DNA of 64,000 nucleotides from Selaginella moellendorffii (taxonomy: Eukaryota > Plantae > Lycopodiophyta): the NCBI RefSeq assembly GCF_000143415.4, contig NW_003314306.1, positions 1,442,776 through 1,506,775 of the forward strand. Direction: 5' to 3'. Positions 10,031-64,000 of this stretch are shown piece by piece (position 1 is the stretch's first letter; the number at the start of each line of letters is the position of its first letter). The translations under genes and the position numbers were made by a program. Below the pieces are notes generated by a model that had not been told where the DNA came from, ran no database searches, and saw nothing but the letters and a program-made list of their open reading frames with translations.

Positions 10031-10119
10031 TATTAGCTTATTAATGAGCATTATTATGAGCAAATTAAAGTGTGTTTACACTCTGGTGATGTCATGTCAT
10101 GATGGAGCTATGATTTGGC

Positions 10120-10765: not shown

Positions 10766-10786
10766 GCAAGTGATAATACTCTGGAT

Positions 10787-10912
10787 GGGTACGTACCTTG
10801 AACATCTTGTTTGAACGTACCTTTGAAATGCTGTGTATTGCTTGGTGCTCAGGTGATTTTGATAGACCACGTCGATGTCCTTTGCAAAGCGTGATCGTAA
10901 GTAGCTGCGAAT
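10787..10912 (+). pseudogene. Short BTA1 intron/exon fragment (copy of ~8547-8700)
   Basis: gaaatgctgtgtattgcttggtgctcaggtgattttgat..accacgtcga..tgtcctttgcaaagcg matches the BTA1 locus, with an internal deletion. Confidence 0.8.
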
Positions 10913-11049
10913 TTGTACACTCGAGAGTCTCGAACACCCTCACACTCACATGGGCCATTTTTTAGCAAAACTACTTATGCTAAGTCGAATTTTCGAGACA
11001 AGAATTGCAGTTGCAGAATTTTCGAGTTAGTTTCGGGCGCGGTTGCAGG

Positions 11050-27940: not shown

Positions 27941-28489
27941 TGCTGGGCTAAGGGTGATCTCGTTGCCACTGTCGGTTATGGTGCTGTTCTTGGGGTTGAA
28001 GGAGGTGGCCAGCTTCCTCGCCAGCTTTTGGTCAGGGTGTGTCGAAAGGGCCTTGTGGAGGAGCTCGAATCCATGGTCCTTGAGCTAGGCAGTTGTGTCG
28101 TTGCTGGGGAAGCCTAGGAATATGGTGCATGATGTACCTGAGGTGCCAGGGTGGACTAGCTTGCATCATTTTCTGTGATCGAAGTGCTTGCCTCGTTAGG
28201 GTTTCTGAGACCCGTAACTTTTGGTTTGCTGATCGTATTCCTGGTGATGAACAGTAGAGATTTGTTGACCGAATGACTTGACTTAATTGAAGATTAATGG
28301 TGGAGATTACTGATGAAGTTAACTTAAGTTCAACTGCTGAGGTGGCATTGATCTAACAGTAGATTTGGACTTAGAGATGTTGTTTGTTGCTGCTGTTTGT
28401 TGTTGAGTCGAGTTGAGTTGTGTCGAACTGAGTTGAGTTGAAGTTTGTCTGTTGGGGTGATTGTTGACTGTTGGTTTCGGGGTGTCATC

Positions 28490-31262: not shown

Positions 31263-31355
31263 CTGACTTACCCTTTACCCCTAATATAGATTTGGAACCT
31301 CCCATAGCCAATTATTGTTTTTGTGAATGTCACATTGTTTGGGACAATATGTAAC

Positions 31356-33868
31356 ATGGCTGACCAACCTAAGGCATAGTGTAGCTCCCACTTGCGTGCC
31401 TGTCTTTGTTCTGCGTCCGGCTTGGGTCTAAGCCCAAGTTCCATTCCATGCTAGCTGGTGAAGTACCCATATCCTCACGTTAAGCCATCGGTATGCCGAA
31501 ATAGCGCTAGACTCCGTTTGGCTCTGTTTTGCGTGCTGGTCTTGGCATTGGGATGCTGGATGCTCCAGGACTATTCCAAGTCGCTCCGGGCTCCTGTTCC
31601 TTTGCTCCTTGGGCTATATGCTCAGGAGTTGCTCCATGGACCGGTTCCATCACTCCTTGGCTTCACGCTTGGGAGTTTGGTACCATTCCTTCGTTCCTGA
31701 ACCTTGGGTACCACACCATGTTCCTTTGGACACGTGGCATCTGTCACATGGCACAAAGAGGGTTTAGGTTCTGCTTCGTGGTGTTATCCTATGGTAAATC
31801 ACCATAGGATAAAGGGTCAAAACCACGTGCACTACATTTGGTATCAAAGGATGAGTCTCAACGAATACTATTCAATGAGATTGGGCAACTAGTCTCATTG
31901 CATACGCAGAGATGAAAACGATGATCCGAGTGGGTACACGTTTGGGTGCTAAGACTTTGCAAATCATTCCTTGGGTATGAATTTGGTTACCATTTTGTAC
32001 CATATTATATGAGCTTGCTCTTGGGCTCATAAGAAGGATTGAGTTGTTTCAGTAGCACGAGTTTGCGCTTGGGCTCATGAGTGAGGCGCATTAGCAATTC
32101 AAGGTTGCACTTTGAGTTGGCAGGATTAATGTTAGCCTATTGGTGGTTCCATGAGTTGTTCCATGTACCATGGGTGAAAGTAAACTTTCCCTAGATTTGC
32201 TATGAGTGGCAAATAGGCTGGTCTGTAGCTATTTAGCACGGCACTAGTGGATCCTTCCTAGGCATGATTATAAGTGGATCAATCAAGATTAGTCTATAGG
32301 GATTAGTCTATTGGTTCAAGTAGTCATGGCTGTGCTCTCTCATAAACTTTTCTTCGATTGAACTAAAGGCAGTGCGAAAGCAAGCTTGAGGTTTGGTCAA
32401 AGATGAGACCGAAAGGAGAGTTATTGGGGACGAAGGATCAAATACGTAAATCATTTTCTCTTCTTGGAGAGATGGTCTGCAACGAGGTGTTAACTCATTG
32501 CTGGTGTTCACATCATGCAATCAAGAGTCCCTATCTTGATGCATGTTGGAGATGGTGGTTTTACAATGGTGAGTTGTGGGATGGATAGCGGTGAAGTGCT
32601 ATACCATTTTGTCTAGGCTTGCTATTAGAAGATTTGGGTTGCAATGCTCAATTCTTTTCCGGGGAACTTTGTTATTGCTTTTTGAGTAGCTTGGTTTTGG
32701 ATTAGTATTGGGTTTTGTCAGAAAGAGAGTGGCATGAGCTTGTCCGTATTGTGAACAAAAGTTAGTGGTATTGGGTGTTGTAAATCTCTATCGGTGAAGT
32801 GTGGCAATTGTGTTGCATTTTGTCGAATTGAGTTGGCGCTTGATACTTACATAAACCTTGTAGTAGTGACATGGGCATTGCTCATGGTGTTGCTTAATTG
32901 ATGATCAAGTCATTGTGATTTCTATATCGTATCCATGTGATAGTGAGCAATGTGTTTACGAAGTTGCTTGGGTAAATGATGATCAACCCTGAAGTGGTTG
33001 ATGGTGAAGCTAGTCTACTTGCACGTAGTAGCATTGTAGTAGCTTTAACTGAATTCTCAATGGTGGTCCATTATGCTAAACTTAAGTTGAAACCTTGTTT
33101 CCTTGAGTTTGCCCATTAGGTGTTGGAAAAGAGTTATAGCATTCACTTGCTATGACTTGTCAGTTGATCTATTAACACTTGGAGTAGATTGTTGGATGGA
33201 AAAGATGTGTAGTTGGGGCATTGACATCACTAGCATTTGTGTTAGTGGAAGTGGCATTGTTATTTCAAGTGATGAGGAATTTTCCTTGGACCTTGATTTT
33301 TCATGTCATTTTTCTTGTTAGTGCTTTGGCTTCACATTGGATCTTGAAGGTAATTGAAGAAGAGTGTTAGTGCAATGTGGATATCCAAAGATGTGGTTTT
33401 CGTGATCAAGCCTTGGATGTTCATTTTGCACTTTGCGGATGTCGGTGTTGGATATCAGTTAGATGGGCAAAGATGTTCGATGTTTAAGCATATTGTTGGA
33501 TCATGAGAATTCGTGTTAAGGTGAACCTATGTGAAATTGTTAGTAGGAGGAAGTTGGTTGAGTCTTGAAAGTTTGTATTCCTGGACTGAGAGTCATTCTT
33601 TCTCTAGGATGGAAATTTTCCACAAATTTTCTTAGACTTTTTCAATGGCTGATCTGTTGTTCACTTTGCCGAAAACCATTCCGTTTTCGTAAGCTAGTAG
33701 AAACTAGTGAAGGGGTTGGAGTTGACTTCAGTTAGCTTAGACCTTGGTAGGTAGTTTGTATGATACGGCCCGAAAGGGATGCTGACTTTTGGGGCTAAGG
33801 CAATTAAGTTGGATAGAGTCTAGAGTTGGTGAAGAAAAGTGGCTGTTGCACTTTTCTAGAAAGGTGAT
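31356..33868 (-). mobile_element. Decayed LTR-retrotransposon pol region, copy 2, inverted relative to copy 1
   Basis: e.g. 32236-32290 is the reverse complement of ~30345-30400; CLSPKSQHPFR..SYKLP is shared with ORF 39016. Confidence 0.65.
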
Positions 33869-34099
33869 TGTGAGACACAAAATCCCTAGGCCCCAAAGTG
33901 GAGCTAGAAAGGGTGCCACGTGGTAGTGGCCGAAGTGAAAGCCAAACGAGTGTAACACGTTTGGACTAAAAACTCTAACTTGGAAGGTCGAGAGCGGGAG
34001 TGGAACTCCCAACAAAGTGCTCAAGGAGCGAGCACGAAGCGAGCAATAAGCAAGGCTCCAAAAAGGGACCCAAAAAGGACCAACACATGACACATGGAA

Positions 34100-34710
34100 G
34101 TGTCCGAGATGGAGTCCGAGACGGACCCTAGTTAGAGTCCGAGATAGACCCGAAGTGGAGTCCGATATGGAGTCCGAAGTGGAGTCCAAGATGGAGTCCG
34201 AGATGGACCCGAAGTGGAGTCCGAGATGGACCAAGACGGAGTCCGAGATGGACCCGAGATGGAGTCCGAGATGGAGTCCGAGATGGACCCGAGATGGAGT
34301 CCGAGATGGAGTCCGAGGTGGACCGAGACGGAGTTCGAGATGGACCCGAGATGGAGTCCGAGATGGAGTCTGAGGTGGACCGAGACGGAGTCCGAGATGG
34401 ACCTGAGATGGAGTCCGAGATGGACCGAGACGGAGTCCGAGGTGGAGTCCGAGATGGAGTCCGAGATGGACTGAGACGGAGCCCGAGATGGAGTCCGAGA
34501 TGGAGTCCGAGAAGGACCCGAGATGGAGTCCGAGGTCGAGACCGAGACCGGGACCGAGACCGGGACTGAGACCGAGACCGAGACTGAGACCGGGACCGAG
34601 ACCGGGACCGAGACCGAGACCGAGGCCAAGGCTGAGACCGAGCCCGAGCCCTCGTCTGAGCCCGAGCCCGAGTCCGAGTCCGAGTCCGAGTCCGAGTTCG
34701 AGTCTGAGAG
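34100..34710. repeat. Hexamer/dodecamer minisatellite (GAGATG GAGTCC, grading into GAGACC, GAGCCC, GAGTCC)
   Basis: Directly visible; explains the low-complexity ORFs in several frames. Confidence 0.95.
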
Positions 34711-35707
34711 GGTGAAAGCCCAAAGCGTTCGTCTCCTAGACCCTGGGGGGTTTGGTGAGCTCCAAAAGTATAGTAAGGGGGAGGACTGCAGTGGAGCCAG
34801 TTTGGCCAGGAAAGGCTAGTTTGGCCCAGGAAGGCCAGACCCAGTGTTGGGTGATGAACTGACCACTGGGAAGTCCAAGACTAGAGTGAATACGGACCGA
34901 CAAGCGTGGTAGCTTGGTGAAGTGTTCAAGAGCCGGCTCTAGTTCCCCTGGGAGATCGACTGGCCGATGCTCCCAATCCAAGTGTGGGTGGCACTACCTA
35001 CTTGGATACCAGGCGTGGCTCAATGGAACCTCGCTCTAAGCCCATGGCTAGAGCACCTAAAGGAGAAAGGCGGGGAGAGTACCCAGGTGGCTCGCGTAAG
35101 GCCACGGTGTTCCGAAATGTTGTCCCAAAGGCCTAGACTGTGGAAAGGAAGAGGAGCAGTCCTCTGGGGTAGTGACCAAGGACACAGTCGTGTGGTGAGG
35201 AAGTCCCAGAGGACCATGGGACTTAATGGTTGGGCCTGTGGGCCTCGATCCAGTGGCAGTGTTGGCAAACACGGCCAGGGGCAGAAAGGGACTTGGTAGG
35301 AACTGACAAAGGGACTTTGGGGAAGGCGATTCCCCAGGTCTGTGGGCATCCCAAGGATGCTAAGGAGTGGATCTAGGATGACCACTCGTGGACAGATGGC
35401 CCAGTCTTGGAGAGACGGGATGGTGATGCAAGTGGTATTGGACCACTAGTGCAGCAAAGGTGAATGGGCATGGCCTTAGTGTAACGGGCCGAGATGTCAG
35501 TGGTACCTTTGGGTGTTGGTCTTGGGACCGGACATGTGGAGCACTTGGACCAGGTGCAAGTGTTGAGTGGCATGGATGCCATTCTTGGGGCTAGCAAGTC
35601 CCAAGTCCTGAATTGGACTGATGGAGGTTGTGAATGAGACTCCTCCAAGTGGTCGGAGGTGTGGTTAAGTGACTAAAGATGAAAGGAAAATTTAGTCGCT
35701 TACAACT

Positions 35708-37999: not shown

Positions 38000-40612
38000 T
38001 TCATTTGAACATCAATACAATTGCTAACTAGCAAATGCACGGATACCAATAACACAAAGTTACAACCTAAGTATCAACATTATTTGCATCGAAACTAATG
38101 AAACTTAATATTAATCTTACGGAGAGATATTTCACTTCACTCAAATCTTAACATCAACAATGTCAATGACAAGGCACCACTTCAATGCCATCAACACCAA
38201 AACAAAGCTAGAAGAAAGCAAAAGTGAATAGCCACTCAAAGCTTTCTAGCAACCAAACTAACTAAAGTCAAAGATACTATACTTAGTATCTGAGACCAGT
38301 TCTTCAACAATACTTAGCTACAGATAATGCATCATCAAGAAGTGAATCACCACATCCAAGACTCAATGAAATCCAATACCATAGACTAAACATAACCAAA
38401 TGATATCAACAGAGGTAGAGTCAACATACCAATATGGAAAAACCATATAAGTCTAACGACACGATCCTCCACAACACCATCCAGTAAGCAAGTCTATCAT
38501 TGCTAAATTATCATCCAATGAAGCAAGTATTAATAATCCTTTGACAAAGTCTACAAGTAATCACTAGTCACAAAGCAACTAATAATCACTTTTCAATTTA
38601 CCTTTCATAAGACCCAAACATTAAACTTATGTCATCGAGTTATATACTTGCCCAACATAAATGTAATACCCCAAGTACGAGATAAAAGTTCATGGACAAG
38701 CATAAACTAAATGACTACCCAAATCCAATTCAACCGCAATAAGCTCACCAATACATCTAATCAATAGCTCTGAGCATGCCTTGAAAAGGCTAGTTATGCA
38801 TAATCAACACTCAGTCAAAACTAAAGTGAAGACCATGAGATGGACTCATATTGGTACACAACCTTCTCATAGACAAAGCTATAGTATGGGTACTAACATT
38901 TCAACCTTAAACAACTAAGTTGGACATCATCATCCTCAGCGAAGTGCAAGGCTACCAAAACTAAGTCAAGATCAGTGAGAGCTCACTACTCTCATAGAGT
39001 CTAACAAAATATAAAGTGCAATCTGTCACTGAGCATAACGCTATAGAAGAAAGGCACAAGGGGTCACCTTTTTTAAAAAAAATGCAACGTGGCTACTTTT
39101 CTACACCAACTCCAGATTCTATCCCACTCAATTGCCTTAGCCCCAAAAGTCAACATCCTTTTCGAGTCGCATCATATAAACTACCTATTAAGATTTAAGC
39201 CAACCGAAGTCAACTCCAACCCTTTCACTAGTTTGTACTAGTTTACGAAAATGGAAAGGTTTTTGAGCAAAGTGATCAACAAATCAACCATCGGACCTCC
39301 TAGTTTTTCCATCCTAGAGAAAAAATTACCCTCAATCCAGGAATGCAAACTTTCAAGACTCAACCAACTTCCTCCTACTAACAACTTCACATAGTTTCAC
39401 CTCAACACAAATTCTCAAGACCCATAGTATGTTTAAGCTTCAAACATCATACCCATATTTTTTATATCCAAGACCAACATTTGCAAAAATGCAAAATGAA
39501 CATCCAAGGTTTAATCACAAAGACCATGTCTTCAGATACCCACATTGCACTAACACTCTTTTTTAACCACCTTCAAGATCCAACGTAAAGCCAAAACACT
39601 AACAAAAAAAATGACATGGAAAATCAAGATCTAGGGAAAATTCCTTATCACTCAAAATAACAACGTCATTTCCACTAACACAAGTGCTAACGATGTTAAT
39701 GTCTCAACTACACACCTTCTCCATCCGACAATATACTCCAAGTGCAACAGATTCACCAACAAGTCATAGAAAATTAATGCTACAACCCTTTCCAACACCT
39801 CAATGGGTAAACCCCTTAAGAACCAAGGTACTAACTTAAGTTTAGCATAATAGACCACAATTAAGAATCCAGTCAAGGCTACTTCATTGTTACTATATGT
39901 AAGTAGACTAGCTTCACCATCAACCACTTTGGGGTTGATCATCATCTAACCACGCAACTTCATAAACACATTACTTATTATCATATGAATATGATATAAA
40001 AATCACAATAACTTGATTATCAATCAAGCAACACCACGAATAATGCTAATGTCATTACTTTAAAGGTTTAATGTGAGTATCAAGTGTCAACTCAATTCGA
40101 TAAAATACAACATAAATACCACACTCCACCGATAAAGACTTACAACACCCAACACCACTAATTTTTGTTCATAACACGGATAAGTTCATGCCACTCTCTA
40201 TCTAACCAAACTCAAAACTAATCCAACACCAAGCTATTCAAGGAGTAATAGCAAGGTTCCCTGAAAAAGAATTGACCATTGCAACTTAAGTCTTCAATTG
40301 TAAATTTAGACAAAATGGTTTAACGCTTCACCATTATCCATCTCTTGACTCACCACTTGTAAGACCATTATAACCAATATGCATCAAAGTAGGGGCTCTT
40401 GATTGCATAATGTAAATATGAGCAATGAATTAACACCTTGTTGTAAATCATCTCTCCAAGAAGAAAAAATGATTTACGTGTTTGATCCTTCATTTTTAAT
40501 GGTTCTCTTTTCGGTCTCATCTTTAACTAAACCTCGAGTTTGCATTTGCATTGTTTTAGTCCAACCAAAGGAAAATTTATGAGAGAGCACAGCAATGACT
40601 ATTTGAACCAAT
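38000..40612 (+). mobile_element. Decayed LTR-retrotransposon pol region, copy 3
   Basis: 38760-40610 is colinear with 28490-30330 (e.g. aactaaagtgaagaccatgagatggactcat in both). Confidence 0.65.
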
Positions 40613-41545
40613 TTATATTACTAGTTTTTTATTATCTATTTTCTGTATATATTTTTGTAGTTTTTTTTGAATATTTATATATTTGTTCTAGGTTTTCTAT
40701 GTAAATTTTTTTTTCTGTTTTTAAAATTTTTTTCTAGTGATGTATATGACATTACTATTGTTTCTGTTTTTAAATGTTCTACTTTTTCTGATTTATAGTC
40801 ATTTGTATGCAATATTACCAATGAAGAAAGAAGGATATATACAAATAATAAAAGACAATACACATAATAAGAAACTAATAGATCATATATGGGTAAAAGA
40901 TATAATATATACAGAAGCAGGAATAGTGCATACTGGACAGATCATAATAAATTATATATCATATTAAAAAATATTTAAAAACAAAATAAAACCAAGCGTT
41001 GCTGCAACTCAACATGCAGCAATTTTATTTTCATTTGTAAAGGAACTCAAGTTACAAAGATAGTATATAAGTTATATATATGGATCTAAAGGGCTTTTAA
41101 AGATATTTTAAGTTAGTCAAACCCAATTCACAATTCACGGTAAAGCCTCACAACTATGGCCATAGCCTTCGCCTCTGCAAGGGTTATTATGGCCATGATT
41201 GCTTTGCATCTTTGCAAGCCTTGTGTCATGACAGTTACAAGTTCCATCCTTTTCTCCTTCATTGACATTTTGTTTTTCTCAGGGTGAGCTCCAGGATGCA
41301 TTTTGCTTTCTATTTCAAATTTATGGGTACATCGTGGTGTTAGGGATCTTGGTGAGAAGGAGAGCTTCATGGTTGAGTGTTGTTTCTCATGTGATTTGCA
41401 TAGCCAAAAGCTAAATTGATTTTCTAAAATAAAATAAAAGTTTTTAATAATCCTATATCTATGCAAAACCATTACAACATAACCCGAATCATAGGACTAC
41501 TACATGCTTAGTATTCTAAACGACCTGGCCACGATCTTGCTTTTC

Positions 41546-44287
41546 TCAGGCAACTTTTGGGCGTTTCTGTTGCAAATCGTCCGCAAACTTCTCTGTGGCA
41601 TCTATTGGGCGCTTCTGTCGCGGATCACCTGTAAACTTGAAATGTCACATCATGATATCATGGGAATAGCGTATCACGAATGTGTCTTACCAAGCTCCTT
41701 AATGTCAGAGACGTTTGGAATTGGAAGCTTATACGTGTCAGGAAGCAGCAAATGGAGCCATGATTTCGCTTCCTCTGATTGCTTTCCAGCCTCCACCTCC
41801 GTATCCGGCACCGCAATTGAAACTTCAGCTAGAAGTCTCTTCGTCTCAGCACCAAGGAAACGAAAGTTGCGTTCGAGACCATAAACTGTTATGTGCGCAA
41901 CAGGCTCCGTTTTCTTGCCATAAGCTTCGTCACCCTGCAAGTAAGACTTATGCATCTCATCCTTCTTCCATAACTTTGTTGGCACTGGCTCTTTATGTTT
42001 TGGTTCTTGGACATTGATGAGGACCGTCACCACTTTGATTTCGATTCCTGAGACTTGCATGAGCCTCGGCCTCAACACAGTCGTAGAAGCTTTGTTGAGC
42101 CACCCACACTTTCTACTGTTCTCAACCGAAACGAGCAGCGCAGTCATCCCCAAGGAAGTCCAGACCGGAATAACAATGTCATAACCTCGGACGTTATTGT
42201 TGGCTTTGTACATGATTGCACAGCCTCTCATGAACGCAGCTGCCAATATCTCGGGTGTCAACTGCCCCTGCTTAACCAGCATAAAACTGTTAAAAAAGAC
42301 GGCAGCGGATTCATCCAGGCCGCTGCATGCCTCGTCAACCTGTGCCTCCTCCGAGCCCAGCAATCGTCCGATATAATCCCGGAGAGGAATGCGGCGTAGG
42401 TAGTAGTCACCCTTGTACAAGCTCCAACAAGCTTGCAGCAAGATGAGCTTCACTATGAATTCCCCCCGATGTCCAGCATCCACATAGCCATTGTAGCAGC
42501 CGTTCAGGAACAGCCCTAGAGCAACTTCTAGAGGCTCGCCACTCTTGCGGTTGAGAATCCTAGCGGCCGCTTCACTCACAACGGGCTCCACGGGCTGACT
42601 GATATGCACTCTCGTACGATCGAGGGAGATGAACGTAAGGATACTCATGTGAGAAGCGACAAGAAGCTGGCTTTGCGCACTCCGCGGGCATATCTCCAGG
42701 CCCGCTGATGCTGAAAGCAAGGCCAACGCCTGGCTCTCAGCCATCTGTACCTTTCCGGTACAACCACAAACGTCCACAGCTTGCCCCTGAAAGTCCCCGT
42801 GCAGCACCCCAACCAGCTTGGCTTCCGCGAGATCGAGGAGGCTCCACACATTTGGATTGCTGTCAAGGCGGCTACTCCATAGGGGCCTTCCATACCTGAA
42901 CAACTGAGCTGGAGACAAATCCGTAGTCCGAGGAACAAGGTCCATATTCACCACCTGATGAATAGGCCTTAAAAGCCGCAAACCCAGGATATTAGCTTTC
43001 CTCGACTGGTCCTCGTGCCGTCGAGGCTGCAGATTACTGATACTCCCCATCGTATCAATGACAACTGCAAAGTATTTCTTGTGTGTGAAGAAAGCTCTCG
43101 CCACTCGCCTCATCTGGTAAAACGGCGATTGTGCCATACTGAAGGTGCTTTCCCCATTCGGTAAGAGACCGCGACCTTCGTCAAAAACAAAAAGCACCTG
43201 CACCTCCCCCTCTTCCGGCAGTACATCCTTCAAGTTGTCAAGCTCTCGTTGGAGTAGATTCTCGTTCCTGGCATCCGGTGACTCACTAATTTCCTCTACA
43301 GCTCTGCTGTTGATCAATTCAAGCCATTTCTTGTGCACGGCCTCCGCAATACTGGACGAATCCATCTCTGAATCCATCCACTGCACTGAGCTCATCTTCT
43401 CACCCTTCACCGTCTCATGGAGGACAAAAAGCCACGCCTTGAAGTATAGCGCCATCTCCAACTCGCTGTTCGTTCGGCTGAGCTGGTTGGCAAGCTCCCC
43501 AGTTCGAGGAGGACAGGCGCTACTGTTTGCTGCCGCCGTGCTGCAATAGCAAATATACACTCCCAGGCGCGACATCTGCATCACCCCGCGTGTTTTCCCC
43601 GTGCCAGAACCCTGTACTATGGAGGTATAGCAGCTGTAGTGCTCGTCTACACAATAGCCAGTGCTATAAGCCACAATAACAGAAGAATTCAAGACTTACT
43701 CTTTGAGCATTCGTTCCTCAACTTACACAGCTCCTTGTACAATATCTTATGGGCCTCTCCAACGTACTCCCTCCGTAACGATTTCATCGCCACTTTCGTA
43801 TTAATCTCGTGCCACAAACGATCACGATCAGGCCCAGTGTTCTCTGCACAGGCACAAGCAAGAGAATACTCGAGCACCAGACGAAAACACAGAACTTTCA
43901 CCTATCGGCTTCTGCATGAGGAGCCTTTCACATTGACGCAGCCACTCGCACGAAACACACTCCAACCTCTCCTTTATCCACTGTAGCAGCTTGGGGTCTC
44001 GTGTTTCTTTCTTTGCCACTAGGTCCATGATCTTGCTGCTGCGAGCCTCTACTGCACAGGAAATGCAAAAAGAACAGTAGCCTAAAGAAACAGCGAAAGA
44101 ACTTACAGTTGAACAGCTTATATATCCGGAATGCGAGACGAGGATTTCCTGGAAACAAGGGGTAAACCTCATCTACATCGGCCGTCCACAACCTGGAGGC
44201 CGAATAGCCTTGCCGCTGAAGGCACTCATAGTCAGGCCCGCAAAGATCCCGCAAGCGCTCCTCGCCGTCATCGCAGACGCTCTCCAT
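41546..44287 (-). CDS. Crinkler/RHS-type P-loop NTPase + restriction-endonuclease-fold protein, copy 1; exons 44287-44107, 44051-43902, 43843-43700, 43646-41691, 41628-41546 (837 aa)
   Basis: Four GT-AG introns of 53-62 nt give one open frame. Walker A YTSIVQGSGTGKT, Walker B VLFVFDE, YGRPLW, EPVVSEAAA, GHRGE, nuclease-like NN..GYDIVIP...LLVSVEN, terminal KRP...KRPKVA. Confidence 0.8.
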
Positions 44288-46000
44288 TAAACCCTAGAAC
44301 TTACCACCCAATCTTATGAGGTCTGTCAACATATAGTAATTTCAATTTACTCGTTTCACCATTAAAATTTTCGTCACGTCTAGTATCAGCTTTCCTCTAG
44401 TCCACATGGCCCTGTACAACATGAAAAGCCATGTAAAGTTTAACCCCAACCAAAAGAGTAAGAAATTAAAAAGAGGAGTTACATTTTGGTAAAAGATCAC
44501 AATAAATCTTTTGACTCTGTAGTGCTCAAAGTAGACTATTGTTGCTGTGCTGTTTCAGCATTTTACATTGCTCACAGCCTCCGGCACTGGCATAAGTTGT
44601 GAATTGTACCACTTCTGCAATTGCCAAAGCAGTGAAGTATATACTTCTAAGTGGTTGGAAATTATTTTCTACATCTTGTGTTTTGCTTGGCATCTGGATC
44701 TCAAGTAATGGGAATCACTGCAAGCGCCATTTAAGGATTCTGAAGCTTCTAATGTAGCAAGTATGTACAATAACAAAAACATCAGGTCAACATGCGGCAA
44801 TGGCAGAAGAATGTTTTCTGATTTTGCATGACATTTCTTCATCCTTGGATTTTTTCCCCTGCTGCGAATTTGTACACTCTCGAGTCTCGAACACCCTCAC
44901 ACTCACATGGGCCATTTTTTAGCAAAACTACTTATGCTAAGACGAATTTTCGAGACAAGAATTGCAGTTGCAATTTTCGAGTTAGTTTCGGGCGAGGTGG
45001 CAGGGCAGCGGGGCGGCGGTGGCGGTGGCGGTGGCGGCAGAGCGGCGCGGCCGGGGGCGGGCCAGTGTGGTTGGGCGGTGGCAGCACGAGCATCCACATT
45101 GATGAAACGTTCTCGCAGTCAAGGCTCCACCTGTGATGATCGTCACTTAGCAAACGAATGAATGGAAAAATATCTCGAAGCTTACCATTGAGTTGACACT
45201 TGACGAGAGTGAAACCTCTTGAATGGCTTCACCTCCTTTGGACAATGTAAGTGGATCCTGCCTGCCTGCTCGCTTAGCTCCATCCCAGTGACACTGCGGC
45301 CCGGTGTGGTCATCAAGCTGAGGAAAAACCATAGTTTTGATAAACAAACAAAACTGGAGTTCCAAATCCCTCTCTCCATCGCAGCCAGAGCACTGAAAAA
45401 ACAAACACCAAGTGTAAAGAGCTTGCATATCTCAAGAGAAAACTTAACAGTGATACTTACAGTGAGCCAGCGTAAGAGAAGGAACTTCCAGGGAGAGAAG
45501 CCATGCTAAGTCGTGCATACTCACGGATTACATAAACCTTGAATAGATGAGTTAAGAGTGAACATGCAAGAAACACTATACAAAATTACTTACTGGAAGT
45601 GCCGTGACCAGGAGCCTTGAATAATAGCGCAGCTGCTTGACAACCTCCTCTTTATTCTTACCTGGAAGGAGTCTAATAGTACTTGTCAGGGTATTGTCAA
45701 AACTCCTTCCAAGGTAAATGCCACACTCGTCCCCCGTCGAAGCACCTGGAAAACATACACACTTTAGTTTGGATGATCAGAGAATCATAGCATACCTCAA
45801 TATAATTCTTGTAGTTGCATTTTCTGTCTGGGTTCGTTATAGGAGCGTGAGGATTGTGAATGCATAGCTCGTTATCAATCACATGTACTTGTGTCTTTCA
45901 ACCTGTTTGAACCAGAAGTTTGCTAGTGAGCAAAGGAAAGTACATATCTTACAGGAAGTTCGTCCAGTGGCCATCTCTCGGTCAATCATCTAGTGGACCT

Positions 46001-52371: not shown

Positions 52372-53243
52372 ATATACTTATAATACAAAGGTAAAGATCA
52401 TAGAACTTATAAATAGGTATATGCATTTAAAGATAAAGTCTCATGCTTAATCTTTAGCAATTGGTTCATGAGATAAACCTTAAAAATATTTCTACACTAA
52501 ATATACTAATCCTTCTATTGTGTAAATCATTTGAAGCAATTACTTATCCACTTGTACTACAGTCCTATGGTATATATCTTATTCAAATGTATATTATATT
52601 TTAAGTAGTCATTAATTAATAGGAATTGAAATTGTGCTATTTCCTCTGATACTACATGTAATACACTTTATCTCTCTCCCTTAAGCTAATTGGAAAAAAA
52701 TCAATTGCTTAATAAGGGGGCCCTTAGTGAATATTTTATAATATCCCAAGGATGTATGGTAGTATATCTAAATCTAATTCTATGATTATATACACTATAA
52801 AAGTATATGGACTGAAATAGTAAAATACTAATCATTGAAATTTATAGAATTTTTATGTAAGATATAGAGTAATTGACTATTTTATATTATAATATGGATC
52901 TAAAGGGCTTTTTAAGATATTTTAACTGGAGGAGTTAGTCAAACCCTAGATACAAATCTCACAATTCATAGTAAGGCCTCACAACCATGGCCATAGCCTC
53001 CTCTGTGTTGCTTCTCATCTGTGATTTACATAGCCAAAAAGCTAAATTGATTTTCTAAAATAAAATAAAAGTTTTTAATATTCACAATAATCCAAAACCA
53101 TTACAACATAACCCTCAAGAGAAGCAAGCCAAACTCATCTTGACAGACTGAAACACTAGTAAAATTTCACAAATTCAAAGTGGAAGCTTAAATACTACTT
53201 AAAGGAATCATAGCACTACTACATGCTTAGTATTCTGCTTTTC

Positions 53244-56024
53244 TCAGGCAACTTTTGGGCGTTTCTGTTGCAAATCGTCCGCAAACTTTTCTGTGGCATC
53301 TATTGGGCGCTTCTGTCGCGGATCACCTGTAAACTTGAAATGTCGCATCATGATATCATGGGAATAGCGTATCACGAATGTGTCTTACCAAGCTCCTTAA
53401 TGTCAGAGACGTTTGGAATTGGAAGCTTATACGTGTCAGGAAGCAGCAAATGGAGCCATGATTTCGCTTCCTCTGATTGCTTTCCAGCCTCCACCTCCGT
53501 ATCCAGCACCGCAATTGAAAGTTCAGCTAGAAGTCTCTTCGCCTCAGCACCAAGGAAACGAAAGTTGCGTTCGAGACCATAAACTGTTATGTGCGCAACA
53601 GGCTCCGTCTCCTGTCCATAAGCGTCGTCATCCTGCGAGTAAGACTTATGCAGCTCATTCTCCTTCCATAACTTTGTTGGCACTGGCTCTTTATGTTTTG
53701 GTTCTTGGACATTGATGAGGACCGTCACCACTTTGATTTCGATTCCTGAGACTTGCATGAGCCTCGGCCTCAACGCAGTCGTAGAAGCTTTGTTGAGCCA
53801 CCCACACTTTTTACTGTTTTTGACCGAAACGAGCAGCGCAGTCATCCCCCTGGAAGTCCAGACCGGAATAACAATGTCATAACCTCGGACTTTATTGTTG
53901 GCTTTGTACATGATTGCACAGCCTCTCATGAACGCAGCTGCCAAGATCTCGGGTGTCAACTGCCCCTGCTTAACCAGCATAAAACTGTTAAAAAAGACGG
54001 CAGCGGATTCATCCAGGCCGCTGCATGCCTCGTCAACCTGTGCCTCCTCCCAGCCCAGCAATCGTCCGATATAATCCCGGAGAGGAATGCGGCGTAGGTA
54101 GTAGTCACCCTTGTACAAGCTCCAACAAGCTTGCAGCAAGATGAGCTTCACTATGAATTCCCCCCGAGGTCCAGCATCCACATAGCCATCGTAGCAGCCG
54201 TTCAGGAACAGCCCTAGAGCAACTTCTAGAGGCTCGCCACTCTTGCGGTTGAGAATCCTAGCGGCCGCTTCACTCACAACGGGCTCCACGGGCTGACTGA
54301 TATGCACTCTCGTACGATCGAGGGAGATGAACGTAAGGATACTCATGTGAGAAGCGACAAGAAGCTGGCTTTGCGCACTCCGCGGGCATATCTCCAGGCC
54401 CGCTGATGCTGAAAGCAAGGCCAACGCTTGGCTCTCAGCCATCTGTACCTTTCCGGTAGAACCACAAACGTCCACAGCTTGCCCCTGAAAGTCCCCGTGC
54501 AGCACCCCAACCAGCTTGGCTTCCGCGAGATCGAGGAGGCTCCACACATTTGGATTGCTGTCAAGGCGGCTACTCCATAGGGGCCTTCCATACCTGAACA
54601 ACTGAGCTGGAGACAAATCCGTAGTCCGAGGAACAAGGTCCATATTCACCACCTGATGAATAGGCCTTAAAAGCCGCAAACCCAGGATATTAGCTTTCCT
54701 CGACTGGTCCTCGTGCCGTCCCAGGATATTAGCTTTCCTCGACTGGTCCTCGTGCCGTCGAGGCTGCAGATTACTGATACTCCCCATCGTATCCATGACA
54801 ACTGCAAAGTATTTCTTGTGTGTGAAGAAAGCTCTCGCCACTCGCCTCATCTGGTAAAACGGCGATTGTACCATACTGAAGGTGCTTTCCCCATTCGGTA
54901 AGAGACCGCGACCTTCATCAAAAACAAAAAGCACCTGCACCTCCCCCTCTTCCGGCAGTACATCCTTCAAGTTTTCAAGCTCTCGTTGGAGTAGATTCTC
55001 GTTCCTGGCATCCGGTGACTCACTAATTTCCTCTACAGCTCTGCTGTTGATCAATTCAAGCCATTTCTTGTGCACGGCCTCCGCAATACTGGACGAATCC
55101 ATCTGGGAATCCATCCACTGCACTGAGCTCATCTTCTCACCCTTCACCGTCTCATGGAGGACAAAAAGCCACGCCTTGAAGTATAGCGCCATCTCCAACT
55201 CGCTGTTCGTTCGGCTGAGCTGGTTGGCAAGCTCCCCAGTTCGAGGAGGACAGGCGCTACTGTTTGCTGCCGCCGTGCTGCAATAGCAAATATACACTCC
55301 CAGGCGCGACATCTGCATCACCCCGCGTGTTTTCCCCGTGCCAGAACCCTGTACTATGGAGGTATAGCAGCTGTAGTGCTGGTCTACACAATAGCCAGTG
55401 CTATAGGCCACAATAACAGAAGAATTCAAGACTTACTCTTTGAGCATTCGTTCCTCAACTTACACAGCTCCTTGTACAATATCTTATGAGCCCCCCCAAT
55501 GTACTCCCTCCGTAACGATTTCATCGCCACTTTCATATTACTCTCGTGCCACAAACGATCACGATCAGGCCCAGTGTTCTCTGCACAGGCACAAGCAAAA
55601 GAATACTCGAGCACCAGACGAAAACACAGAACTTTCACCTATCGGCTTCTGCATGAGGAGCCTTTCACATTGACGCAGCCACTCGCACGAAACATACTCC
55701 AACCTCTCCTTTATCCACTGTAGCAGCTTGAGGTCTCGTGTTTCTTTCTTTGCCACTAGTTCGCTTATCGTGTCGGAGCGAGCCGCTACTGCACAGGAAA
55801 TGCAAAAAGAACAGTAGCCTAAAGAAACAGCGAAAGAACTTACAGTTGAACAGCGCAAAGATTTGGCATGCGAGATCAGGATTTCCTGGAAACAAGGCGA
55901 AAACCTCACATACATCGGCCGTCCACAACCTGGAGGCCGAATAGCCTTGCCGCTGAAGGCGCTCATAGTCAGGCCCGCAAAGATCCCGCAAGCGCTCCTC
56001 GCCGTCATCGCAGACGCTCTCCAT
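53244..56024 (-). CDS. Crinkler/RHS-type NTPase + nuclease protein, copy 2; exons 56024-55844, 55788-55639, 55580-55437, 55383-53389, 53326-53244 (850 aa)
   Basis: Same exon structure as copy 1; in-frame 39-bp duplication; nuclease motif GYDIVIP...VSVKN. Confidence 0.8.
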
Positions 56025-56744
56025 TAAACCCTAGAACTTACCACCCAATCTTATGGGGTCTGTCAACATATAGTAATTTCAATTTACTCGTTTCACCATT
56101 AAAATTTTCGTCACATCTAGTATCAGCTTTCCTCTGAGTCCGCATGGCCCTGCACAACATGAAACGCCATGTAAAGTTGAAGCCAACCAAAAGAGTAAGA
56201 AGAAAGAAAGAGGAGTTACATTTTGGTAAAAGGTCACAATATGTACTGCTCGAAGTAGACTATTGTTGCTGTGCTGTTTCAGCATTTTGCATTGCTCACA
56301 GCCTCCGGCACTGGCATAAGTTGTGAATTGTACCACTTCTGCAATTGCCAAAGCAGTGAAGTATATACTTCTAAGTGGCTGGAAATTATTTTCTACATCT
56401 TGTGTTTTGCTTGGCATCTGGATCTCGAGTAATGGGAATCACTGCAAGCGCCATTTAAGGATTCTGAAGCTTCTAATGTAGCAAGTATGTACAATAACAA
56501 AAACATCAGGTCAACATGCGGCAATGGCAGAAGAATGTTTTCTGATTTTGCATGACATTTCTTCATCCTTGGATTTTTTCCCCTATGAGTTTGCTGTTCT
56601 TCTTGTAATAGGACAAGCATTGTGAGGATTAGCAAAGCAAAACTTTCAATACTAGTAGCATAGAAGTCATATTTAAATTCTTGCTGCTTGCTAGACTGTA
56701 GTAAAGATTGATTCTTATTTATCCAACAATTTATTCTAAGTGCT

Positions 56745-58166
56745 AGGGGGCTGTGAATTTCTGGTAAGTAGCAAATTTTCTTATATCTCCGTGTGAAGAG
56801 CTGTGTTTATTTATTCCAGGAGAAAAAAAGCCAGGTACTTCAAGGATGGATTGTACTACCACGGTATCATGGAACTTACTCTTTGATATGATGCCTCTAA
56901 TCTACAAAGTTATGCAGGTGGTATGGGTCGACTCATTCGAGCAGTGAGGGCGCTTGCAAGGCTTACACGAAAGGTTCTTCTTCCAGCCAAGCAAGGTTAT
57001 CTGAATCTGTTGTTTTTCTTCACAGGAGCGCTTCATCGAGTCTCTTGTTAATGCGTCCACACTACAACAACAAAGAGAGCTCTGGTATAATGCATCCGCA
57101 TGCACCAAAAGTAACTGTCTCACTTTGATTGCCTGAGCAGGTTCGCTTGTGTAGGATCACAAGCTGGGATTTTTGCGAAGATGGTATCTTTCTTCGTAAC
57201 CAACAGATTCACGATGTCGTTTTGTGCTGGAGTGTGCAAAGGCCAGCTTCGTCTGCTACGCAAGGAGGGCAACTTATACAAGTAAGACATCTTTCTCAGG
57301 CGTGATTCTCATTGAACCACTTGTCCTTTGTTTTCACAGCTACATTGTCCGCTGTCTAAATTCAACAGCTGCGTATTCACATCTCCGGGACAGCAACTAC
57401 TTTTACCGCTGCTGCCTGACTGGGAAGTTTTCATCCAACTGCTGTCCTCGTTTCCTGGAAAAGGAAAACTTCCACAAACTCAAGGTACTACACACGAACG
57501 ACTTGCCATGAATTTCAAGACTTTTGTGCTGTGTTGCAGACAAGGCTTGCTGCGGAGGAGTGCCTGTTGATCCGGACAGCCACATTTGTGGAGGAGCTTT
57601 CGAAGCGAATGTACACCAAGGTACGTACCTGGAACTTCTTGTTTGGTGAAATGCTGTGTATTGCTTGGTGCTCAGGTGATTTTGATGGACCACGTCGACT
57701 GGCTAGAACAAAGCGACGTCGATGTCCTTTGCAAAGCGCTGCAAGCACATGTAATTGTAAGTAGTTGCGAATTTCCACACCCTCGATCACCTCACACTTG
57801 TGATTTCCACTTGGTTTTTAGCCTGGAGGCCGCGTGATCTGGCGCAGTGCGTCGCGACCTCCAAGCTACGCCAATTGCATCGAGAAATCTGGATTCAAAG
57901 GTTCGAAGTTCTTTCCTTTTTGGAACTGTTTTTGGAAGCTAAAAACCAATTGTTTCTGCGCAGTGATCCAAGTAGCAACGAGCAAGGCTTACATGGACAG
58001 AGTAAACATGTACGCGAGCTTCTTCGTGGCTGTTCGCGTGGGTGGATTGGCATCCATCAAAATTCCAATCCATCCATCATCGAGGCTTCACGATCACAAG
58101 CTGGATCCTAAAGAACCCGAGTCGCCGGACTCGGTGCTACCAGCGCCATTGTGGATCGAGATTTGA
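56745..58166 (+). pseudogene. 5'-truncated BTA1 copy (3' part of the BtaA domain only)
   Basis: Starts mid-exon; 9-bp in-frame deletion near 57155 and a W>S change; no start codon or BtaB half. Confidence 0.85.
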
Positions 58167-59177
58167 TCGATCATTCCTTCCACTTCTCCACTGACGTCTA
58201 TCGATTAATTGGAACATAACCATTGTTAATCAGCCCAAGGAATATATTTGGCCCAAACCATATAAATTGACTATCCATGATGGGATCTGCACAGCAAACT
58301 CCCGAAGCAGAGGTTATGTAGAATTTGCTGCATTGCGTTAAACATGCTGTTTGAGCATATAAAAAAAAATGGTGGTGATACTCCTTTCATGGCAAAAATC
58401 CGCAGCCACCTTCGCAGGATTAGGACTGCTTGCCACGATCAATTCTTGTGGTGGTCTCTTTTGCCACCTTTGCAAGACTAATTCAGGTGCAAGCTGATTT
58501 GACTAAAATAATATAGACCCCTTACCAGGTATTTTGCCATGAAAGCCAGGAGTGCTGAGCAGCACTAGACCTGGCAGCAACAACAAGAATAAGAAGTATG
58601 GAAGTATAGAATTAAAAGTATAGAAGAATAAGTAAGAATATTGGCTGAATTAGCCTTCTTAACATCAATCTTTAAGATTTAGACGATGGGATTGATCCAC
58701 AACATCACCAGAATGTAAATATGTTTTAAACTTGTTTATATGGAACATTAGATGAATTTTTGAATTAATTGGCAAGTCCAAAATGCAAACAAAATCCCCC
58801 ACACTATGAAATTGTCTAAGGCCCATAACATTGTGAAGACAATGTAGCACCACCACCTCTTTTCAAAGACCATTTTGCATATAACAACTTAAGGAAAACT
58901 TTATCACCAACTTCGTACTCTTGATGATGATAATGTTCATTAGTTAATCTTTTATCTTGTTCTTGAGTTTGTTTCATGTTTAACTTTGTCAACTCAAATT
59001 TATCTTGTATATCCTCCAAGAAATAAAAAATATAAAGCATCCAAACCAAAGGTAAATTCAAACTCATGGAATACTTAAGAAGCTCATAGCCATATATTAG
59101 CTTATTAATGAGCATTATATGAGCAAATTAAAGTGTGTTTACACTCTGGTGATGTCATGTCATGATGGAGCTATGAT

Positions 59178-59845
59178 TTGACTTCACCTAATTGCTTTCC
59201 AGCCTCCACCTATGTATCTAGCATTGCAATTGAAAATTAAACTAGAAGTTTCTTCGTCTTAGCACCAAGGAAACAAAAGTTGGGTTCAAAACCATAAATT
59301 GTTTATTGTGCACTGTCTTCTTGCCAAAGCTTCGTCATCCTGCCAGTAAGACTTATGCAGCTCATCCTTCCTTTGTTGGCACTAGCTCTTTGGTTCTTGG
59401 ACACTGATGAGGACTGTCACCACTTTGATTTGGATTGCTATGACTTGCACGTTATTGTTGGCTTTGTACATGATTACAACGCAGCTGCTCAACTCCCCCT
59501 GCTTAACTAGAATTTAAACTGTTAATAGAGACCGCAGCGGATTCATCCAGACCGCTGCATGCCTCGTCAACCTGTGCCTCCCCCAGCCCAGCAATCGTCA
59601 GAGATAATCCCGGGGAGGAATGCGGCATAGGTAGTAGTCACCCTTGTACAAGCTCCAACAAGCTGCAGGAGGACGAGCTTCACTATGAATTCCCCCTATG
59701 CCCAGCATCCACATAGCCATTGTAGCAGCCGTTCAGGAACAGCCCTAGAGCAACTTCTAGAGGTTCGGCCACAAGAATACTCATGTGAGAAGCGACAAGA
59801 AGTGGCTTTGAGCACTCCGCGGGCATATCTCCAGGCCCGCTGATG
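59178..59845 (-). pseudogene. Second deleted relic of the NTPase-nuclease gene
   Basis: Duplicate of 10120-10765. Confidence 0.85.
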
Positions 59846-60124
59846 CAAGTGATAATACTCTGGATGGGTACGTACCTTGAACATCTTGTTTGGTTCAGTC
59901 TTTGAAATGCTGTGTATTGCTTGGTGCTCAGGTGATTTTGATAGACCACGTCGATGTCCTTTGCAAAGCGTGATCGTAAGTAGCTGCGAATTTGTACACT
60001 CGAGAGTCTCGAACACCCTCACACTCGGGCCATTTTTTAGCAAAACTACTTATGCTAAGTCGAATTTTCGAGACAAGAATTGCAGTTGCAGAATTTTCGA
60101 GTTAGTTTCGGGCGCGGTTGCAGG

Positions 60125-61430
60125 GTCATGCCATGGCCGATCTTTCACGATTGCCATGCCCTCCCTCCTCCCAGGATCTTGAGGATGACCCAGCTGGTGC
60201 TGCTCTGTTTTCTTGCGACACCACGATCGCTTTGCGGCCGACGCTGTTCCTGAATGGTATCAAGGCATTGCAGATTATCTGGCTACCGGCGAGTTCCCTG
60301 CTGACTTTACTGCCACCGAACGCAAGCGACTTATTATCCAGGCTCGTCCATACTCTCTCCTGCATGGCCAGCTCTACATCCTCGGCCGTGACGACGTTCT
60401 ACGCCGCTGTATCCTTCCTCACACTGTCATCACTTCATGCCATAATTCACCTTAAGGCCACTTTTCATCTGAGGCAACAATTCGTTTGGTTCTTCAAGCT
60501 GGCTATTGGTGGCCAACGCTTCACAAGGATGTTGCTACCTACGTTCAGACCTGTGATCCCTGCCAGGGTGCTGGTCGCCCAACTCACCGCGATCTGATGC
60601 CGCTTAATCCTCTGCTTCTGGTGCTTCCTTTTGAGAAGTGGGGCATCGATTTTGTGGGACCGATCAAGCCGGCCAGTCATCCTTCCTGTTGTCGCTACAT
60701 TCTCGTTTGCATGGACTACGTCACAAAGTGGGCCGAGGCTGAAGCTCTCACGGAAGATACAGCCAAGGTTGCGACTTTTCTTTACAAGAACATCATCATG
60801 AGATTTGGCTGCCCTTTGGAGCTGGTGAGTGACCGAGATACTCACTTCATCAATCAAGTGATCGAGACCTTGGTGGAGAAGTATGGCATCGCTCATCGCT
60901 ACCACCCTCGTGCTTGGTGCGCACCAACAAGATATGTGTGACATCATCATGAAGCTCGCAAGTGCTTCTCGCACAGATTGGGATCACCGTTTGCTCGATG
61001 CACTCTGGGCATACCACGTTGCTTACAAGGTCACCACCAAAGCTTCACCGTTCCATCTTGTTTATGGACAAGAAGCCATCCTGCCGCTTGAGCTCGAGAT
61101 TATGGCTGTCGAGCACAACTTGGACTGGGACAACACTCTTCAAGCTCGACTGGACATGCTTCTACAGCTCGACGAGCGTCGACTTCTCGCTTTCCAAGCT
61201 CGCGAAGCATGCCGCAATGGTATGATCGTCATTTGCGTGCTAAACATTTTTCTGCTGGTGGTTCTGCTGTATGATAGCAAGCACTGAAAAAAGCATGGGA
61301 AACTACGTGTTCACTGGCTTGGGCCATATTGCATTGTTGAAGTTTTTTCTAACGGCTCAGTCCAGCTTGAAGATTTCAGTGGGAACTTCTTACCAACTGG
61401 TGCTCACTTGCGCAAGTACCATGAGTGAGA
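60125..61430 (+). mobile_element. Ty3/gypsy integrase remnant (duplicate of 11050-12372)
   Basis: Same motifs; PEWYQGIADYLATGEFP..ERKRL upstream. Confidence 0.9.
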
Positions 61431-64000
61431 TGAAGCTGCCATGGAGTTATGTGCTCTGGGACGGAGCCCAATAGGTGGGGGGTGATGTAGATTCCAACTT
61501 TAGTCATGTCACCAGTGGGATTGTATGTAATGTATGTCTGTCCTGAAGATTACCAAGAGGGAGTGGACCTGGGCTATGATGGTGCTGAGGCACGTCAAGA
61601 AGAAGCTATGCTGTTGATGAGAAGCCAAAAACCAGCCTAAGAACCAGACACTCTGTGCTGCTGACCTACACAGCCGCAGGGCTGCCGGGGTTTCTGGTTC
61701 TTCAAGACAAACATCTTTATTCTTTTTATATAATCCCATTTTTACTCCTCTCCTATCATGACTTGGCTAAAGTTGGAATATTCTCTCAGTACTACATCAT
61801 TCTTTATATATAATCCCTTTTTACTTCTCTCCTATCATGACATGGCTAAAGTTGGAATATTCTCTCAGTTCTACATGCACCATTCACGACTGATTTTTAT
61901 CAACTTTTACATAGTGCATCACAGTGTTCATCTACAATTTCCTCTGGCTTCAAAATGCTGCACAAGCTTAATATGGAAGAAATTCAAAAAGTCTTAGATT
62001 CAATGGAAAGAAAACTCTTAGAAAACAATTTAATTTGTGCAAAATGGGCAAACCACATTATATCGTTCAGTATTATAACTTTATACTACAGAACTACTAC
62101 ATTACTTCACCTAGGGAATTTTATAGGAATTAACCAAACATGAAATTTCATTATATATATTTGACAATTACAACTTTAGGGTTCTTTAGTATCCAAGTGG
62201 CATTATAATAATTACTGCCTAACTTGGTTTAGTTTCATAATGCCATACAAAATTATGTTCTATGAGGATGGAGCAAATTGATACTTCACTAATTCATAAT
62301 AAGGAAGTGTTTTAAGTGTATAGAATATAGAAATGTACATATTTAATAAGCTTAATAACCTCAGATTATATATATGAATGAGTGGTCCAGATTAAAATCA
62401 ATTTGACAACTATGAAAAACTATATAATAATTTTATATGGCATTATTATATCATCACCTCCTATTTAAATGATGGAAGGGAAATAAGATTCTCCTATCGA
62501 TAAGTTGAGATTTGGAAGAACATCAGGAGGACACACCATTGAATTTGTAGGTGGTGTAATTTCTTTTTAATCCTTTTATACATATATAATTTCTAGAGGA
62601 TTTATTTGTTAAATATTATGTCAAATATTATAAACTTGTAATCTAACTTGCTGCAACACTCAATATAGTCCTTTCTATTAGGTATAGAGCCCTTTAAAAA
62701 AACCACTTATTATAAGATTAGGAAAAATAAACCAACACCAAATCATTCATATTGATGGATGATATGAGAGTTGTAGTATTATTATTATCCCACTTGTATG
62801 TGACTTAAGTATTTAGAAAACTCTACTTGAACCAGTAGAAAAATACTCATTAAATATTAATTTCAAGATTTAACATCATTGGCAATCATAAAAATAAACT
62901 CAAATTGATTAGCAATATATGCATAACTATATATGAGTTTATATAATGAAGCACTAATAGAACTTTACACCCCATAACATATGTGTACTAGAGAGATAAT
63001 AAATAATCATCCCAATCTAAATATTAAAAGTTATATACTTTGCAATTATCCCCTTGAAGGTTTAAATGAGCAATTCTACCAAACTATCTATTTATGGATA
63101 CTAAACACTCATGAAAGTGTGGTATATCAACAGCCAAGACATTAAGATGTAAATTACCTTAACCATAAATGCAAAACTATTATCTAAAAGAATTCATTTC
63201 AAACAAGAATGCTAAAACATTACTTAATTAGAGAGGAAGTATTTAATAACAATTGTAAATGCATTAATAAGAGCACAAACTTCCACCTAAGAAGTTATGA
63301 GACCAGAAGCAATAATGACATATTCATTATTGGCAGTTAGTCATAAAAAAAATGTCACCAGCTCAAACAAATAAAAAATTACAAACACACAAAAAGGAGT
63401 GTTATGAGTTTAGCACCAAATAAAATTATACACATACAAGATGACTATAAAAAACAAATTCCCTAAGATGTTGTTAGCTATAAAATTAAGATCCAAATAA
63501 TAAAAAGGTTTGATTAGATATATCTAGGGCTGGATGTATTTAGGACTTAATATATCTGAGACCGAATTCAAAACCGAGTTTAAAATATAGACAAAGATTG
63601 AATTCAAGACCAAATATAAATAGGGGTCAACTATAAAGGATAATAGCCCAAGAGTAAGAATGTCCTTTTTTTTCCAATTAGTTAAATGTTTTGGGATATT
63701 TGGAGTTAAATATCATTAATTTTGCATACTATTGGGTTAAATAACCTCTAAAACACTTGAGACCAAGTTTAAGTTTAAGTTTGAGTACTATTGAGTTAAG
63801 TAACCTTTAAGAACATTTCAGACCAAATCCAAGAAACAACTTTACAATCCCTACTATTTCTGTAGATTTCAATGTTATTTCCTAACATTATATATTGCAT
63901 GTGTAATTGCAAGTTTGTCTTGCTTTAAACCCTAGCCCTAGTAAGAAATGGTTTTAAAAAATTAAAATGCAAATTTAATTTATCAAATTAGCAACTTGGT

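Follow-up and report, generated by a model that had tools for sequence, protein, structure and literature searches.

A hypervariable patch in the predicted SAM-like header of a Selaginella moellendorffii NTPase family: a case for diversifying selection alongside gene conversion

The window analyzed here, a stretch of 64,000 nucleotides from Selaginella moellendorffii, contains two minus-strand copies of one gene within a 3.4-kb duplication (41486-44860 and 53205-56584) whose arms share 95% identity, with indels. Why do two such similar genes differ so strongly in one short part of their N-terminal domain, or header? The original prediction described a SAM-like header with about 15 replacements in about 35 residues next to an identical intron 1 and a near-identical NTPase, and it proposed diversifying selection or, alternatively, patchy gene conversion. 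The peptides on which it was based are indeed encoded on the minus strand, at 55760-55910 in copy 2 and at 44023-44173 in copy 1. Several other repeats lie in the window. At 10102-10767 and 59165-59864, within a different duplication of 7 kb (7655-14894 and 56742-64000), lie two degenerate pieces of this gene's C-terminal portion. GC-rich repeats of 6/12 nt, degenerate in sequence, form a long array at 34070-34720, and 26177-27507 holds an inverted repeat of 427 to 463 nt that is about 90% complementary, with a gap of about 400 to 480 nt. The arms of a large inverted repeat (28486-33860 and 38754-40612; about 80 to 90% identity, with a third copy) might belong to a foldback or TIR element.

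Copy 2 matches SELMODRAFT_420356 of S. moellendorffii. The gene has five exons; in both copies the frame stays open when exons 1 to 4 are joined at GT-AG sites, and the short exon 5 is present in the database model. In copy 2 (all features on the minus strand), exon 1 (55844..56024) encodes predicted SAM-like helices 1 to 4 and the first half of helix 5, and is followed by a 55-nt GT-AG intron 1 (55789..55843) that is the same in both copies. Exon 2 (55639..55788) encodes the helix extension and a linker, and its joint at intron 2 is seen in contigs, as are the splice joints of exon 3 (55437..55580). Exon 4 (53389..55383) encodes an AAA+/STAND-like NTPase, a helical region, and a predicted REase-type domain, and exon 5 with the stop (53244..53326) is placed from the database model and our reading of the sequence rather than from RNA. 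The corresponding features of copy 1, also on the minus strand, are exon 1 at 44107..44287, intron 1 at 44052-44106, exon 2 at 43902..44051, and exons 3 to 5 at 43700-43843, 41691-43646, and 41546-41628 (span, 41546..43843).

For splicing, we used sequencing runs that were judged by guess to be RNA, relying on splice joints alone and not on depth. Assembled contigs skipped introns 2 and 3 in three of three such runs, one of which used a slightly different end of intron 3. In a separate comparison, intron 1 was skipped by one contig from one of three such runs, with just 28 letters on its short side, and it was often kept in contigs from which intron 2 had been spliced (e.g., run X12, record 11). 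If intron 1 is retained, translation in the SAM frame would end after 119 residues. Copy 2 has a second ATG in a different frame, and three RefSeq models start from it and continue through intron 1 into the NTPase.

The differences between the copies fall into two segments separated by intron 1. Patch A (codons 39-57; 55855..55910 in copy 2 and 44118-44173 in copy 1) contains 13 nucleotide differences and 8 replacements, and patch B (codons 62-70; 55760..55786 and 44023-44048, respectively) contains 10 nucleotide differences, 5 replacements, and a serine codon switch between AGC and TCC. Across codons 39-70, 23 of 96 nucleotides and 16 codons differ; besides the 13 replacements and the serine switch, there are two synonymous isoleucine changes. 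The clustering described originally is thus real, with 13 rather than about 15 replacements. When the 66 coding differences were permuted 10,000 times, the fullest 96-nt window held 14 differences, compared with the 23 observed. Intron 1, which lies inside the patch, was confirmed as identical (0/55 nt), and introns 2 and 3 differ by one nucleotide each. At the neutral background between the copies (2.3%; 32 of 1394 noncoding and synonymous sites), an identical 55-nt intron has a probability of 0.28, so its identity is not odd in itself; its difference from the flanks (0/55 versus 23/96) is significant (p=1e-5).

Nonsynonymous sites within the patch differ far more often than the neutral background (20/75 versus 32/1394; p=4e-14), a 12-fold excess in the rate of amino acid change, although the p-values for this pair are optimistic because the patch was delimited after the data were seen. 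The corresponding pN is 0.267 and pS is 0.143, giving a pairwise dN/dS of about 2.1 that is not significant (Fisher p=0.39). Synonymous change is itself raised in the patch, at 3 of 21 sites, or 7-fold over background (p=0.012-0.014), and is also higher there than in the remainder of the gene (p=0.012). Elsewhere, the claimed near-identity holds for the NTPase core, with 8 nucleotide differences in 340 codons, but not for the rest of the protein, where 32 further replacements lie outside the patch. Eight of these fall in a second divergent cluster at codons 720-737 of copy 1 numbering (53609..53662, minus strand). Copy 2 also carries, relative to copy 1, an in-frame 39-nt tandem duplication (54681..54758, minus strand) at an NTPase loop whose length differs across the family. 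Mutagenesis of the diversity-generating-retroelement type was considered and rejected, as the changes lack adenine specificity and the intron is spared.

Such a patch might reflect nothing more than relaxed constraint, local hypermutation, or an error of assembly or annotation, including translation of exon 1 in the other frame through a retained intron 1. The three database models that use that frame and the contigs that splice intron 2 while retaining intron 1 fit an annotation error, and beyond the patch the coding sequence has diverged at a nearly neutral rate (omega 0.93), as relaxation would have it. However, relaxed constraint cannot raise the nonsynonymous rate above the neutral 2.3%, and the rate in the patch lies far over it; a mutational hotspot would strike the intron and core residues as well. 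The other frame is closed in copy 1, where it stops after 32 codons, whereas the SAM frame is open in all nine sequences compared below and folds confidently, and independent runs vary at the same patch sites. We regard this group of explanations as largely refuted and very improbable.

What does the patch encode? An AlphaFold model of the header (residues 1-114; 10-row alignment) predicts helices at residues 9-16, 19-25, 30-34, 38-44, and 49-59, followed by 61-73, which together form a five-helix bundle with a long fifth helix. The pLDDT is 82 to 89 over residues 11-60 and under 70 for residues 61-73, and the helices are near-identical in the full-length model. In a structure search of 48,161 chains, the best 6 of the 50 matches listed were SAM-containing (Z 4.8 to 5.2); the match to the SAM of ASK3 aligned 64 of 71 residues (Z 5.2; rmsd 2.9). 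Helix-hairpin-helix (HhH) domains followed closely, that of XPF at Z 4.6, tied within 1 Z, and a Z of about 5 is lower than the typical best Z of 7 to 8 for this tool. The structure rows retrieved for the header from the Atlas were likewise of HhH or SAM types, with TM under 0.5. Foldseek gave no match to the header at E<=0.001 (E>3). Pfam gave no SAM match for the exon 1 peptides at E<=1 or for the full protein at E<=0.01, although such a search can overlook divergent SAMs. A sequence search of the PDB with the header returned three matches at E 0.2 to 1.2, none of them a SAM. A match to BRCT on exon 2 was weak, below cut-off, and was set aside. The five-helix model and the ranking of the matches argue, with moderate strength, for the SAM-like header originally suggested as the best reading, while the low Z scores, the closeness of HhH domains, and the Pfam result keep it short of proof.

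Placed on this model, the variable residues occupy particular surfaces. Residues L44, F45, L51, A52, I55, and F59 are invariant in all nine sequences. In the helix at 49-60, the moment of variability points 169 degrees away from the hydrophobic face (p=0.0098), which suggests that helix 5 changes mainly where it is exposed; exposure was derived here from periodicity, not from model coordinates. No significant face bias was found for helix 38-44 (p=0.26), for 61-73 (p=0.09), or for 49-73 treated as one helix (p=0.95). In SAM domains, as described in passages of PMC9499636 and PMC5993539, helix 5 together with its loops makes up the end-helix surface, whereas helix 3 and the adjacent turns of helices 2 and 4 make up the mid-loop surface. 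The variable residues are therefore predicted to lie on the start of helix 4, on the outer face of helix 5 on the end-helix side, and on the following helix, whereas residues 23-37, the helix 2-3 core of the mid-loop surface, show one variant in nine sequences. To the question whether the variable sites map to SAM polymer interfaces, which the original prediction raised as a check, the model answers that they match the end-helix side and the helix 4 start, while the mid-loop core is nearly invariant.

For the body of the protein, HMMER found 709 representatives at E<=0.001, the closest being other Selaginella and fern (Adiantum) proteins. Walker A (GSGTGKT; 55328..55348, minus strand) keeps its lysine in 105 of 111 aligned homologues, and Walker B (DE; 54914..54919, minus strand) keeps its aspartate in 109 and its glutamate in 108 of the 111. 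The full model (pLDDT 81.5) has Avs3 as the best match to the NTPase (Z 10.8; rmsd 4.8; 276 residues aligned) and also matches ORC/Cdc6, TnsC, and MuB, with Avs3, ORC/Cdc6, and TnsC at Z 8 to 11. Both motifs and the model identify this part as a predicted P-loop NTPase of the AAA+/STAND type. The structure matches listed for the full model span residues 120-521 only, so the predicted C-terminal alpha/beta domain is barely covered by them; Foldseek with the full model gave no match at E<=0.001. The C-terminal domain contains a D...(Q/S)xK motif (53819..53878, minus strand) resembling D...(E/Q)xK, which we take to be the REase motif. Among 111 homologues, this putative motif has D in 99, Q in 75, and K in 83. 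The Selaginella copies have S for the usual Q, and the putative nuclease lysine (53819-53821 in copy 2; 42121-42123 in copy 1) is K in copy 2 and E in copy 1, and in the family K in three and E in four of seven copies; nuclease activity is therefore uncertain. The K and E copies suggest active and inactive forms, the latter as sensor or decoy. Look-alikes of the body in the Atlas are fungal and oomycete clusters, two of which carry a Crinkler Pfam domain, one in 87% (TM 0.50) and the other in 19% of its members. Pfam assigned no family to the 850-aa Selaginella protein, whether Crinkler, NB-ARC, LRR, or any other, and the model has no repeat region.

To view the patch across the family, we began with a 90% cluster of 14 database models. 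Seven were kept; of the seven dropped, one has no header, and the other six were taken, from their sequences, as alternative models of loci already in the set. With copy 1 from the window, the set comprises eight full-length sequences, which may include alleles of two haplotypes, and the header-only locus P0024 brings the per-site listing to nine. One of the eight, SELMODRAFT_430001, has an upstream neighbor gene in common with copy 1 and differs from it at 4 of 33 patch residues. A separate Selaginella database model, P0173, in which a short piece of the NTPase family is fused to an LRR receptor-like protein, is possibly misjoined.

Among the eight copies or alleles, 19 of the 33 sites at residues 38-70 are variable, and nine have at least three states, with up to four per site; only 3 of the other 764 sites have three or more. 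Multistate sites thus make up 9 of 19 variable sites in the patch versus 3 of 84 elsewhere (p=6e-6). The mean distance is about ten times greater in the patch than in the NTPase (0.31 versus 0.029), and the two are uncorrelated (rho 0.01). One DNA run (X1, record 5) carries a further state at codon 62, and variants at the same patch sites recur in independent runs. Position 65 is S, G, or A in the family, so the AGC/TCC serine switch can be explained by successive replacements, as deduced from the protein states. The incompatibility of informative sites rises with distance, from 0.19 for sites 1 to 5 residues apart to 0.47 beyond 100 (adjacency permutation, p=0.0003). This distance dependence is the mark of recombination or conversion, and the copies are mosaics. 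Copy 2 and SELMODRAFT_429380, for example, differ at 1 of 185 C-terminal residues, yet at 10 of 33 in the patch.

Could conversion alone, acting neutrally and in patches from a more distant donor paralogue, have produced the header variation? Conversion is active in this family, the patch has an excess of synonymous changes, and many of its differences span several nucleotides. The C-terminal cluster at codons 720-737, which is nearly all two-state, linked, and divided family-wide into two haplotype classes, fits such a process and would be a simple converted haplotype, in contrast to the patch. A single donor tract predicts linked two-state sites and a diverged intron; the patch instead has up to four states per site in eight copies, 35 of 105 incompatible site pairs within it, and the unchanged intron 1. 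A header search of proteins of 467-1488 aa returned only the family's own cluster, and neither that set nor the cluster representatives yielded a diverged donor carrying this header. We judge neutral conversion quite unlikely. The mosaic supports conversion, one of the two explanations first offered, across the family, acting together with selection and not in its place. For diversifying selection, the other of the two, the multistate sites, the exposed-face bias, and the 12-fold rate speak in its favor, whereas the nonsignificant dN/dS and the raised pS do not.

We estimate a probability of roughly 0.55 that the patch is the likely binding surface of a predicted SAM-type N-terminal domain under diversifying selection, with gene conversion likely homogenizing and reshuffling the rest. 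Selection would keep old patch variants, giving many forms of one SAM-like surface. Short conversion tracts would erase differences in intron 1 and the core and reshuffle the motifs, and a few synonymous changes would travel with the codons under selection. The variable face may bind a changing outside partner, or escape a changing inhibitor, in defense or another conflict; once bound, the proteins would gather into clusters, the NTPase would be activated, and the C-terminal domain would be set free.

The same variable face might instead be a code for self-assembly, in which the SAM of each copy polymerizes head to tail with matching copies and no others. Such a code would keep paralogues apart or serve in a self/non-self or selfish-element conflict. 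The charges appear to covary: four sequences have a net charge of -2 over residues 38-47 and of +2 or +3 over 48-58, while the three with Arg39 have Gln54 and a net charge of 0 or -1. An acidic helix 4 start pairs with a basic helix 5 in SAM-SAM complexes, according to passages of PMC5993539. On the other hand, one copy with -2 has a neutral helix 5, and the nine sequences are related and their sites linked, so the charge pattern may be shared ancestry. The conserved mid-loop core also argues against matched interfaces and favors an outside partner or inhibitor. Overall, a self-assembly code is the main rival but unlikely. An unlikely reading, too, is that these proteins are intracellular plant immune or self-recognition receptors of a non-NLR kind, with specificity on the N-terminal SAM surface in charge-complementary helix 4/helix 5 variants that micro-conversion shuffles. 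There, the SAM variants would decide which partner or sibling copy is joined by the STAND-like NTPase-nuclease, and frequent intron 1 retention would throttle the full-length protein.

How general the hypervariability is can be gauged from ferns. The Adiantum nelumboides cluster (11 models) includes four full headers whose putative SAM part varies at one site, a near-invariance which means that hypervariability at short distances is no family-wide rule. Four more distant fern-like proteins have headers 29 to 52% identical, versus 71 to 86% for the NTPase start. The Selaginella and fern header profiles match at E=0.08, and a reversed control gave 0.23, so homology of the two headers is not established. 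A header profile run against 169 stored proteins picked up no headers beyond those of Selaginella and the profile's own fern inputs, and a metagenome scan with a 24-nt exon 1 pattern yielded 0 loci.

Among the closest known systems are the CR (Crinkler-RHS-type) NTPase+HTH+REase proteins (Zhang et al. 2016, via PMC5289972), which in passages of that source likewise combine a header, a P-loop NTPase, and a predicted REase and are reported in land plants too. The Selaginella family, which resembles fungal and oomycete clusters in its body, is also tandem and multicopy. The CR headers named in those passages are Ubl, alpha-helical, and Myb-HTH, not SAM, whereas the Selaginella header is SAM-like; passages of PMC6131194 say nothing on SAM headers, and Zhang et al. 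2016 may already list one. In the literature consulted, we found no report of variability in the Selaginella NTPase family and no demonstrated function for plant CR-type NTPase-nuclease proteins. Oomycete CRNs differ in having a ubiquitin-like LFLAK header, whereas the Selaginella header is predicted to be all-helical and has no Crinkler Pfam match. The N terminus is the conserved part of oomycete CRNs but the most variable part of the Selaginella proteins.

NLRs carry their variable surface on the C-terminal LRR, while in Selaginella it is a 33-residue N-terminal patch on a protein with neither NB-ARC nor LRR. Compared with canonical SAMs (ASK3, tankyrase, Eph/SHIP2), the header shares the predicted five-helix topology, with variable residues on the end-helix side, at 7 to 17% identity, a Z of about 5, and no Pfam match. 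SAMD9/9L and the bacterial Avs STAND proteins also join a SAM, a STAND NTPase, and a nuclease-type effector in immunity and under positive selection (passages of PMC12680541), and Avs3 ranks first among the structural matches of the Selaginella NTPase. Both differ from Selaginella in domain order and effector, Selaginella lacks a TPR sensor, and the likeness noted here is structural. SAMD9/9L and some fungal NLRs (passages of PMC9815663) are precedents for SAM-headed immune NTPases. The evolutionary pattern has a counterpart in the RPP8 NLR cluster, where polymorphism is likewise shared among paralogues through intergenic conversion and balancing selection is required to account for the diversity (bioRxiv 10.1101/694240). 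The pattern of selection plus conversion is known, and the domain that carries it is unusual. An arms-race signature on one face of the header would point to the residues that set specificity and would supply natural variants for swaps. If our reading is true, evolution of the NLR type would also act on receptors built in another way, in a vascular plant of early-diverging lineage.
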